A stretch of 20,721 bases of DNA from Synechococcus sp. Lineage in GTDB: Bacteria > Cyanobacteriota > Cyanobacteriia > Thermostichales > PCC-7336. A model generated the notes under the pieces. The model made no database searches. It had not been told where the DNA came from and worked only from the letters and a program-made list of their open reading frames with translations. The stretch is from contig JBFRWN010000074.1 in NCBI GenBank assembly GCA_051439605.1, positions 1-20,721 on the forward strand, in the 5' to 3' direction. Position numbers and translations under genes: made by a program. Positions 5,204 through 15,460 of this stretch are shown here, one piece after another (position 1 is the first letter of the stretch; the number at the start of each line of letters is the position of its first letter).

Positions 5204-5944
5204 CTAAGGGTCTGGTTCCCGACCAGACTTTTTGTCAGTGATATAAGCTTTGACAGCTAAATCAAGGACTGATTCGGAACAATCGATCGCAGTCAAATAA
5301 CCTCTCCTATAGGAGGAGAAGTTAAAACATCTAAAAGCAAGCTGATACAAGTAATAGCGGGCTTTGTGAAAGATGAATCTTTGACAGATATAGATCTTGA
5401 GAGCAAATTTGCTACGAAAGAAATGTATAGCCTTTATTTGTGGAACCTCTTTAGACATTCGTTGTATATCAACAGTTACATCTAAATAGTCGTTTGCAAG
5501 CCTGATAAGATTATTTATCTCATCGTTAAACTTGGTGATAGGCTTTGAAAGCCAAATATCCTGAGCAATGCAGCTTCTGCTTGCTAAATAGCCTGCAACA
5601 AGCTGAGCACCTATACTTTTGCCGCAAATACTCAAATAACGTGTCAGCGATTCACTCAAGTCACATTGAGCTTCCTCCTCCATTGCCTTGAAAACAAGCT
5701 CAATTGAATATAAGGCGATAGGATGATTGTTTGGCATAAGGGAGATCATTTCTTTCTTTATTTTATTCAATCCCGTCTCGCTAGGAAGCTGTTTCGTTGA
5801 GTCATATAAATCATCAAGTTCAAAAGTCAGAACTATTAATTTGTAGATATTTACCAAATCTTTTTCGGCGACAAAGATTTGATGATTTTTCAGGATTTCA
5901 TTGTATATTTTTACGTAGTATCTGATTCCTTCTTTGTCAAGCAT
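5204..5944 (-). CDS. putative class I terpene synthase / isoprenoid synthase-fold protein (orphan, AT-rich)
   Basis: GGAG RBS upstream; DDLYD (aa 44-48), SLTRYLSICGKSIG (aa 99-112), RLANDYLDVTVD (aa 148-159). Confidence 0.55.
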   Translation of the reverse strand: MLDKEGIRYYVKIYNEILKNHQIFVAEKDLVNIYKLIVLTFELDDLYDSTKQLPSETGLNKIKKEMISLMPNNHPIALYSIELVFKAMEEEAQCDLSESLTRYLSICGKSIGAQLVAGYLASRSCIAQDIWLSKPITKFNDEINNLIRLANDYLDVTVDIQRMSKEVPQIKAIHFFRSKFALKIYICQRFIFHKARYYLYQLAFRCFNFSSYRRGYLTAIDCSESVLDLAVKAYITDKKSGREPDP

Positions 5945-6616
5945 ACTCCACTCCCATTTGTTAGAATCTGCAGCAAAGGTCGTGTAAAGTCATTAGAGAA
6001 ATTCAGGTCGGGAATTCAGGAATGAAAGCAGGTTCTGGTTGGTACAGATGTGCAAAGCACTCAAAGCTTGTGGGGAAAATTGGATGGCAAATCGCCCTTG
6101 CAGGCTACAGGCTTGCATGACGCTGGGCAAGTCAACAGTTGGATCCAATTGCTTCCTCAAGCTCGATCTCCCATTAACTTTGTTCTTGGCTGCAGCCAAC
6201 TGGAACAGGCGTTCCCCTAAATTAATCTTCGGAACAATCATCCCCGCATGGTCTCAGAATTACCGCTGTTGCACTGTCTTTGGCTGTAGGGAGCGGAGCA
6301 ACGTACGCTTAGCCCAGACAGCCGCCTCTGTTTCTCCGCGCTCTGCAACATGACTGTGGTGACGCTGATACTCCACTATCTCCATCGAAATTGCTACAAA
6401 CGGCACCACCTGTTGCTAATGGACGCTCATCAACTGTTGTCCAAGTAAAGTTATGGTTGCCATATCGATTGCATGCTTGATGGTTTGCGAGGGGAGCATC
6501 ATTACTTGCACACCATACCGATATGGACTTTGGAAAGAGGTGCCTGATGGCTGGCAACTACTGTCTTTGGATCTGTTAGTATTGGGTGCTACATAATTCT
6601 TTAGGCTTTCCGGTTC

Positions 6617-14106: not shown

Positions 14107-14242
14107 CTTCCAACCAGTGCCCTCAAGTCTATGTATAGCAAGCGCTTTAAGCTGTACGTACTTTCTTCGTCAGAGTTGGTACCATACCCCTGCTGAGATT
14201 TCCGAGGTATTGAGTCCACACCCAGAACGAGACCAAACACCA

Positions 14243-15460
14243 ATGCTGACCGAGGTTGCCATCATCATATTAGTTGCCCTCTTGGGTAACCTGGCCTTCA
14301 ACAAACTGGGTCTGCCCGGCATCTTAGGCATGATCGCCACAGGCATTCTCTTGGGCCCCAGCGGTCTGGACTTAATCGATCCAGGGATACACGGGTTCCT
14401 GCAAGAAGCAAAGACGGTTGCCCTGATCGTCATTCTGATTCGAGCTGGTTTGGGGATCAGCAAGGAAACGCTGAACCGCATTGGGGGACCGGCCATCCGG
14501 ATGAGTTTTGTGCCTGGTCTGCTAGAGGGGACAGCGGTCACGGTGGCGGCTTACTATTTGCTGGAACTCCCCTTCCCTGAAGCAGGCATGTTGGGCTTTA
14601 TCATCGCAGCGGTCTCCCCAGCCGTGGTGGTGCCATCGATGCTGCAGTTGAAAGAGGGGGGCTTTGGCAAGAAAAAGGAGGTACCGACGCTGGTGCTGGC
14701 CGGGGCCTCCGTAGACGACGTCTTTGCGATCACGATATTCGGCATTTTTGCCGGTATCGCTAGCGGGTCATCGACCGGCTGGGGCTATCTGCTCGTGGGT
14801 GTGCCGGGGGGCATTGCCCTGGGTGCCGCTCTAGGTGCCGCCATTGGCTTTGTCCTCGTTCGCTTCTTCGAGCGATATCACATGCGAGACACCAAGAAAG
14901 TCATTATCTTCGCGATCGTTGCGGTGGTGTTCTACGATCTGGCCGAAGACCCTGCCATTAAAGCAATCCTGCCGATCGCCGCACTGCTGGGGATCATGGC
15001 GATTGGCTTCGTCATCCTCGAACGTAACAACGGGTTGGCCAACCGCCTGGCAGCGAAGTTTGGCAAAATCTGGGTGCTAGCTGAGATTCTGCTGTTTGTT
15101 TACATTGGCACCGAAGTGCAACTGGGAGAACTGAATGGCGATCTAATTGGGGTCGGTCTTTTGACCTTGACTATCGGATTGGCAGCTCGCAGCTTCGGAG
15201 TGTGGCTGGCGTTGATGGGATCGGACTTGTCGAGGAAAGAACGTCTTTTTTGCGTCATCGCTTACTGGCCCAAGGCAACGGTTCAAGCCGCGATGGGAGC
15301 AGTTCCTCTGGCGATGGTGGTGGCGGGGAAGATGACTTCAATGACGGTGGAAAGCGGTCAAACAATCCTGGCGATCGCCGTGTTGAGCATAGTGGTTACA
15401 GCGCCGTTGGGGGCTGCAGGGATTAAGTCGATGGGGCCGCGTCTGTTAACCCAGGAATAG
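14243..15460 (+). CDS. cation:proton antiporter (CPA superfamily, NHA2/SLC9B-like)
   Basis: ILIRAGLG, AAVSPAVVVP, AGASVDDV (DD motif), PKATVQAAMG, TAPLGA; many hydrophobic segments; start at MLTEVAII. Confidence 0.9.
   Translation: MLTEVAIIILVALLGNLAFNKLGLPGILGMIATGILLGPSGLDLIDPGIHGFLQEAKTVALIVILIRAGLGISKETLNRIGGPAIRMSFVPGLLEGTAVTVAAYYLLELPFPEAGMLGFIIAAVSPAVVVPSMLQLKEGGFGKKKEVPTLVLAGASVDDVFAITIFGIFAGIASGSSTGWGYLLVGVPGGIALGAALGAAIGFVLVRFFERYHMRDTKKVIIFAIVAVVFYDLAEDPAIKAILPIAALLGIMAIGFVILERNNGLANRLAAKFGKIWVLAEILLFVYIGTEVQLGELNGDLIGVGLLTLTIGLAARSFGVWLALMGSDLSRKERLFCVIAYWPKATVQAAMGAVPLAMVVAGKMTSMTVESGQTILAIAVLSIVVTAPLGAAGIKSMGPRLLTQE

Follow-up and report, generated by a model that had tools for sequence, protein, structure and literature searches.

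A minimal, divergent protein with a predicted class I terpene synthase fold in scattered cyanobacterial genomes

P0001 is a 246-residue protein encoded in the window, the 20,721-nt stretch of Synechococcus sp. DNA analyzed here. Its modeled fold, its family profile, and its pattern of residue conservation agree and support its assignment as a minimal, divergent enzyme of the class I terpene synthase fold, as a first-pass annotation made from the DNA letters had proposed. We consider it likely that P0001 is a stand-alone, Mg2+-dependent synthase that ionizes an acyclic prenyl diphosphate of its host and yields a simple terpene, either an olefin or an alcohol. The first-pass reading frame, motif coordinates, and D44/N151 numbering were all right (Table 1), with ND of the second motif at 5494-5489 and the last D of RLANDYLDVTVD at 5470-5468. 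The gene is also AT-rich, as described: its GC content is 36.8%, against 51.3% for the genome, a value equally low in 0.7% of 6,539 same-size windows.

TABLE 1 Features of the P0001 gene, with positions in the window
Feature	Position	Strand	Basis
P0001 gene, class I terpene-synthase-fold protein, 246 aa	5204..5944	(-)	ORF, homologs, model, dN/dS
GGGAG, likely ribosome-binding site, ATG 6 nt downstream	5951..5955	(-)	Read from sequence; function inferred
DDLYD (D44-D48), first metal-binding motif, terminates helix 27-48	5801..5815	(-)	Sequence and model
Y103-G112, helix broken at S110-I111-G112; S110 the predicted linker, I111 the predicted effector	5609..5638	(-)	Model and conservation
RLANDYLDVTVD (R148-D159), predicted sensor R148 and metal triad N151/D155/D159	5468..5503	(-)	Conservation
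R162-x3-E166-x2-Q169-x-K171, family signature, predicted active-site lid	5432..5461	(-)	Conservation; low-confidence loop
Helix 179-206, candidate membrane-docking or oligomer surface	5327..5410	(-)	Composition, model
C-terminal SGR (S240-R242), likely RY-motif counterpart without Tyr	5219..5227	(-)	Conservation

P0001 had been called an orphan, but a word-based search retrieved 73 proteins with 39 to 99% identity among 366 candidates, one of them P0001 itself, leaving 72 relatives. A profile built from 56 near-full-length sequences recovered 35 representatives among 1.84 billion proteins; these were close members, fragments, distant members of 211 to 251 aa, and one plant-like protein (P0106). 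PF19086 matched 18 of 19 members. The Terpene_syn_C_2 Pfam score of P0001 was 22.3 against a cutoff of 23.7, and 7 of the 11 carrier genomes had a score above the cutoff. No NCBIfam family matched P0001, and a fused, longer form was absent among 7,991 candidates (weak evidence). The expectation that the gene would be annotated as hypothetical held only in part, because four relatives (P0023, P0048, P0066, and a Gloeothece protein) already carry terpene synthase family names from NCBI or JGI. The family is otherwise undescribed in the literature found: no study of it turned up in a search that included the supplements of PMC12009305 and PMC11234867 and that lay mostly outside subscription papers.

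The P0001 gene is under purifying selection, with dN/dS of 0.13 to 0.35 in the 14 unsaturated pairs listed; 13 of the 17 pairs that included the window gene were saturated. In a tree, members clustered by host lineage, and the window gene joined the Chamaesiphon group in an open set whose support, 94/88, was below the tool's threshold. Chamaesiphon-type members (P0022, P0031, P0033, P0039, and P0041, and the genes of L003, L005, and L037) carry in-frame insertions of about 10 to 45 aa right after DDLYD, and one such insertion matches a dispersed repeat at L068:890-935 (96% over 46 nt). Small repeats seem to insert into the loop after DDLYD while the gene stays intact. Two other Chamaesiphon-like copies (L039:2309-2905 and L041:5002-5394) are missing some 50 codons close to the start, DDLYD included, and are therefore probably inactive.

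The structure model of P0001 (pLDDT of 91.2, pTM of 0.90) matched class I terpenoid synthases over its whole length. When 48,161 chains were compared with an exhaustive structural aligner, the best 50 rows spanned model residues 1 to 246 with Z scores of 18.1 to 13.2, and 49 of them were terpene synthases, the other being the N-prenyltransferase DabA. Terpene synthases also made up 40 of the 41 rows listed by Foldseek, where LrdC had the top TM-score (0.63) and no match reached an E value of 0.001. This whole-length superposition suggests that both metal motifs face one cavity. A model of the distant member P0084 (32% identical) had an identical helix order and a similar kind of structural matches, and for the Stanieria member the Atlas model gave TM-scores of 0.74 to 0.78 to Terpene_syn_C_2 clusters versus 0.49 to 0.53 to UbiA and to squalene/phytoene synthases. 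Sequence searches of solved structures found nothing significant (best E value of 0.12 with the protein, none with A1, and 0.32 with A2), and in a viral fold library only an Orpheovirus synthase matched (E value of 0.12). An Atlas match (0.92) to a CO2-hydration protein was dropped as an identity when the structure gave it no backing.

At 231 to 251 aa, the proteins of the P0001 family are shorter than every solved relative among the best 50 structural rows. Residue 1 of the model falls on residues 42 to 79 of most single-domain chains, on residue 35 of the Orpheovirus enzyme, and on residue 23 of BjKS. As the model starts about 45 residues into class I chains, P0001 would correspond to the catalytic core without the first helices; the pocket could be too open for cation chemistry after their loss. 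The only match outside the family among the 1.84 billion proteins was P0106 (E value of 1e-7; HH probability of 63%), which we read as a piece of a plant-type terpene synthase, covering the alpha domain. It aligns with P0001 at E91, Y103-L104, RLxND, and R162, and plant terpene synthases differ from P0001 in that P0001 has no beta or gamma domain. The highest identity among the best 50 structural rows, 18%, belonged to tolypothrichol synthase (9kgb; Z of 14.9; 336 residues), which from its name we take to be of cyanobacterial origin and which had no sequence match to P0001 at an E value of 10.

The co-occurrence of DDLYD and the second motif exceeds chance. Only 1 of 1,477 stop-to-stop frames of 200 to 330 aa in the genome, that of P0001, held the pair, and it arose in 5 of 20,000 shuffles of the P0001 protein. 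Among the 65 word-search hits of at least 225 aa (8 shorter ones were dropped), DDxxD was present in 63, RxxNDxxD in all 65, and the final D/E in 61. Seven residues (D44, Y103, G112, R148, N151, D152, and D155) did not vary across all 19 members compared, whose identity goes as low as 19%, so the metal motifs pointed out at first pass are conserved among homologs. Beyond these motifs, R162, E166, and Q169 were found in 56 of 56 close relatives and K171 in 55; the loop that holds this signature follows helix H, and residues 161 to 170 have a pLDDT of 64. Other family-specific conserved residues are H193, E224, and S225. An RY motif at the C-terminus binds diphosphate in class I enzymes. In its probable counterpart here, S240 was present in 56 of 56 close relatives, while R242 was Arg in 35 and Gln in 19, the latter forming a Pleurocapsales-type clade; 9 of 10 distant members have Arg.

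The first-pass annotation had placed a Lys where the Arg sensor is usually found. That position, K109, is variable (it is Lys in 39 of the 56 close relatives and 4 of the 10 distant members), and the predicted sensor is instead R148. By sequence register, R148, S110, and I111 match the sensor-linker-effector triad of Sat1646, Stt4548, and BjKS; because they fill the triad positions, the diphosphate sensor does not appear to be missing. According to the accessible text of PMC9814573, helix H carries the sensor Arg of Sat1646 (R220) and of Stt4548 (R236), three positions ahead of the second motif, and the linker and effector of both enzymes (S198 and I199 in Stt4548) lie at the helix G break; both placements are like those in P0001. 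For BjKS, the available portion of PMC4180811 gives S165 and I166 as linker and effector and describes R204 of RLxND as essential. In the P0001 model, the break sits between helices 100-110 and 113-123.

The pimarane class I diterpene synthases Sat1646 and Stt4548 (7e4o and 7e4m) were also among the closest structural matches. Sat1646 was first by Z score (18.1; root mean square deviation of 2.9 Å over 210 residues), LrdC (6oh6/6oh8) had a Z of 16.8, and Stt4548 had a Z of 15.5. The three share only 9 to 14% identity with P0001, which starts at their chain residues 49 to 60 and has Asp for Ser at position +4 of the second motif. BjKS (4w4r) had a Z of 14.4, and the NGR234 ent-kaurene synthase (KS) aligned in register at DDxxD, RLxND, and Y-L-x5-S-I. 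The rhizobial KS, of 301 residues against 246, is weakly similar (HH probability of 5.7%; E value of 0.007) and differs by Gly at +4 where P0001 has Asp, by Ala at the helix break where P0001 has Gly, and by its gibberellin operon, which P0001 lacks.

Such likenesses raise the question of whether P0001 is a labdane-type synthase acting on copalyl diphosphate (CPP), its class II cyclase being too divergent to recognize or unassembled, or CPP being supplied by a squalene-hopene cyclase. The triad layout and the leading positions of Sat1646 by Z score and LrdC by TM-score would fit this idea, and cyanobacterial class I/II synthase pairs are reportedly the subject of Yu et al. (JACS 2025). A cyanobacterial CPS-KS exists, according to the accessible part of PMC11469919. 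Sat1646, Stt4548, and LrdC, however, use CPP from a clustered cyclase, as do the known cases generally, whereas no class II partner was seen in the 27 loci of the family, and the window, as stated at first pass, has neither a class II cyclase nor a GGPP synthase in its ORF list, read by eye. In the 11 carriers, PF13243 detected only squalene-hopene-cyclase-type genes in six and nothing in five, so that even this conceivable supplier lacks a match in 5 of 11; as a control, PF13243 scored the rhizobial CPS above the cutoff. With the rhizobial CPS as the query, only the same squalene-hopene-cyclase-type genes were retrieved from the 11 carriers, and a cyanobacterial class II domain added nothing further; both were single-sequence searches and therefore weak, which leaves the labdane reading some room. 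Six-frame searches of the host genome, which is 99.98% complete (a figure for the host only, the ten other carriers being without a stated completeness), gave no class II diterpene cyclase candidate either. The host appears not to make CPP. As to the labdane-related class, the sensor Arg of RxxND is present and R148 is invariant, and a class II genome partner was not found in the 11 carriers. The first-pass likeness to small bacterial diterpene synthases therefore stands for the catalytic layout (RxxND and the S-I-G break) and falls for the pathway, and we regard use of CPP by P0001 as very unlikely. A same-genus genome without the gene carries, at L057:1-1878 on the (-) strand (G001:C113), a 704-aa frame in which a domain that resembles class II terpene cyclases and has a DADST motif is joined to a second domain without assignment.

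Compared with (N/D)Dxx(S/T/G)xxx(E/D), the second motif of P0001 has N, D, and the final D/E at the correct spacing, while the middle position is Asp in 65 of 65 hits, outside the canonical set. The Asp at the S/T position had been remarked on at first pass, and it is indeed invariant; the associated suggestion of kinship with squalene/phytoene or trans-prenyl synthases was not supported. Phytoene synthases resemble P0001 in having Asp at +4 (NILRDVGED), in their N-x3-D-x3-D arrangement, and in the location of the first Asp motif around residue 45. Judged by analogy, Asp at +4 need not exclude terpene synthesis, because such spacing occurs both in phytoene synthases and in the ionizing class IB synthase BalTS, whose second motif is D-x3-D-x3-D, DY(F,L,W)IDXXED (PMC11234867, in part). 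The same portion of that source gives DYLDNLXD as the class IB first motif and D(N/D), ND, and RXXKD as class ID motifs, and it describes the class ID enzyme PeuTPS as a producer of diterpenes from GGPP whose gene has no other terpene genes around it. The P0001 family differs from both classes in its canonical DDxxD and its PF19086 match, and alignments inspected by eye contain neither DYLDNLXD nor RXXKD.

The resemblance to phytoene synthases, together with a possible membrane helix, would suit a prenyl-diphosphate hydrolase (forming geranylgeraniol or phytol) or a head-to-head condensing enzyme whose third Asp alters the metal cluster. The profiles speak against this: SQS_PSY and polyprenyl_synt matched 0 of 19 members at an E value of 0.1, and the profile-profile probability against phytoene/squalene synthases was 0.2%. 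Membership among squalene/phytoene synthases was not supported, since the invariant Q, N, and R of Q-x2-N-I-L-R face R-x2-N-D-Y-L in P0001, where the Gln (-3) and Arg (+3) are replaced by Arg and Leu. No squalene or phytoene synthase is among the best 50 structural rows, and the host already holds two SQS_PSY genes. Hydrolysis or condensation is thus quite unlikely. Trans-isoprenyl diphosphate synthases have an Arg pair after the first Asp motif; this identity was likewise not supported, as P0001 has no such pair after D48, no polyprenyl_synt match, and no alignment to a GGPP synthase.

DabA (6vkz) ranked fourth among the structural matches and shares the fold, with a Z of 17.0 over 233 residues, near the best synthases, and this is counted against a solo synthase. 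DabA-type enzymes are marked by acceptor-binding residues and by prenyl transfer to glutamate; the feature seen in common with P0001 is the fold. According to the accessible text of PMC8833176, DabA and RadA are N-prenyltransferases, DabA belongs to an algal toxin gene cluster, and RadA takes either GPP or DMAPP and has a structure homologous to those of bacterial terpene cyclases. A protein of this kind would ionize DMAPP or GPP and pass the cation to an N, O, or C nucleophile of a small molecule, bound by R162/E166/Q169/K171 and H193/E224/S225. Several invariant polar residues do lie outside the metal motifs, and the truncated N-terminus could open the pocket. DabA is nevertheless only 8% identical to P0001 and has 429 residues against 246, and no gene for making or tailoring an acceptor is conserved nearby. 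We consider prenyl transfer unlikely.

For a stand-alone synthase, the reading we prefer, a mechanism can be proposed from known enzymes. The two trans-prenyl synthases of the host would supply the acyclic prenyl diphosphate, and three Mg2+ ions on D44/D48 and N151/D155/D159 would bind its diphosphate. Ionization would be triggered by R148 as the sensor, S110 as the linker, and I111 as the effector, with the site closed by the R162-K171 loop and R242; the allylic cation would then be quenched by proton loss or water, with little or no cyclization. Points that count to some degree against a solo synthase are, besides DabA, the phytoene synthase-like Asp at +4, the three CPP users among the top structural matches to the model, and the Gln that takes the place of R242 in the Pleurocapsales-type clade. 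The weakest parts of the proposal are the substrate and the location. GGPP is put first, with FPP next, because GGPP is the main pigment precursor in cyanobacteria, and helix 179-206 is imagined to hold the enzyme on the membrane in which long prenyl diphosphates reside.

Aromatic residues make up 34% of helix 179-206, basic residues 22%, and acidic residues 2%, and its hydrophobic moment is low; its composition suggests that it may dock the protein on membranes. It was the most membrane-favorable 30-residue window in 16 of 19 members, with the best window elsewhere in the other 3. Among 1,003 control host ORFs without a transmembrane-like stretch, 24 scored equally well, and 7, P0001 included, had a basic, acid-free window of this kind. 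The membrane score of the soluble rhizobial KS was -5.5, versus -7.0 for P0001. The signal is modest, weakened by AT-rich codons, which favor Phe, Tyr, and Lys, and an oligomer surface would resemble this helix in composition. It is possible, if speculative, that the family is a minimal, membrane-docked class I group, set apart by an all-Asp second metal site and its own lid, that acts on membrane-bound prenyl diphosphates (for instance GGPP, phytyl-PP, and solanesyl-PP) and forms a mobile one-gene terpenoid pathway in cyanobacteria and in AT-rich non-cyanobacterial hosts. If true, such a pathway would tap pigment and quinone precursors, and the protein would be a natural minimal scaffold for the fold.

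The gene is rare and patchily distributed. The 6 genomes from the host's family yielded no copy, whereas 4 of 401 genomes of its class, 3 of 401 of its phylum, and 3 of 27 Chamaesiphon-genus genomes had the gene; these samples overlap, so that the counts are not additive. A pattern scan of 185,579 species, which can miss members, found 11 loci in 10 genomes, all cyanobacterial; metagenomes gave 14 loci, and 1 of 72,556 plasmids carried the gene. The 27 loci compared (the window, L002-L012, L028-L041, and L046, of which L029 duplicates the window locus at 99%) represent about 15 neighborhoods, and gene context is not fixed. This homolog neighborhood search, a check proposed at first pass, uncovered no recurrent partner. 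A Pfam scan of 41 neighbors, with the remaining ORFs read by eye, revealed no P450, UbiA, prenyl synthase, or class II cyclase. Two lineages have flavin monooxygenases upstream of the gene, and three have methyltransferases close to it; since neither is general, no pathway is claimed. In Gloeothece, an NRPS gene lies about 7.6 kb away from the family gene, and the genes that separate the two are unrelated. GC content was below that of the flanks for 18 of 18 genes measured. We infer transfer followed by frequent loss and claim no donor. Remnants of the 3′ end of the gene adjoin hydrogenase-maturation-like genes in two Chamaesiphon-genus genomes (L072:1495-1620 and L068:1520-1689), one of which also holds a full copy. 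A distant member at L040:363-1067 lies on a contig of 30% GC next to HTH and GAF domain genes and does not look cyanobacterial.

Many defense genes are similarly patchy, AT-rich, solitary, and often lost, and P0001 might in principle retain the fold in a noncatalytic or unrelated role, for example as a mobile defense or lipid-binding protein. Its most conserved residues, however, are the metal and diphosphate ligands. PADLOC gave no credible match (best E value of 0.004, in 1 of 19 members), no defense-island context was seen, the 31 pattern matches in viral contigs yielded 0 confirmed members, and phages yielded none. A role of this sort is highly improbable.

As stated in the accessible portion of PMC12009305, no cyanobacterial class I diterpene synthases were known before 2025. 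Few are known, and the P0001 family, which has no visible need of a partner, is accompanied in its hosts by no other class I synthase that could be detected: PF19086 found only the family gene in 8 of the 11 carriers, nothing in 3, and no second class I synthase. The family probes the minimal size of the fold, whether an ionizing synthase can have Asp in place of Ser/Thr at its second metal site, and the function of a KS-like catalytic layout in the absence of CPP. Two strains in culture have a member: Stanieria cyanosphaera PCC 7437 (Sta7437_4230) and Gloeothece verrucosa PCC 7822 (WP_245602820.1).

At its own locus, the P0001 gene is flanked by leuC and an aldehyde dehydrogenase gene. These two were not adjacent in 5 of 5 related genomes searched, so an insertion scar could not be mapped, and no flanking DNA common to 18 family genes was found. 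Positions 5216-5231 and 5999-6014 form an inverted pair of 16 nt, which on a rough estimate is about what chance would give. Neither a promoter on the (-) strand nor a terminator was predicted at the gene. Directly upstream, positions 6001-6139 of the window have 71% copies at G000 C97, at G000 C11, and in G002, contain an imperfect inverted repeat (arms at 6065-6085 and 6143-6163), and are crossed by an 82-aa ORF with no Pfam match; the stretch is possibly a small dispersed element. The gene content of the host and its 4,208 HIP1 sites identify it as a cyanobacterium. Elsewhere in the window, a cation/proton-antiporter-like gene at 14117-15460 (+) has a GC content above that of its surroundings (58% at 14501-15000).
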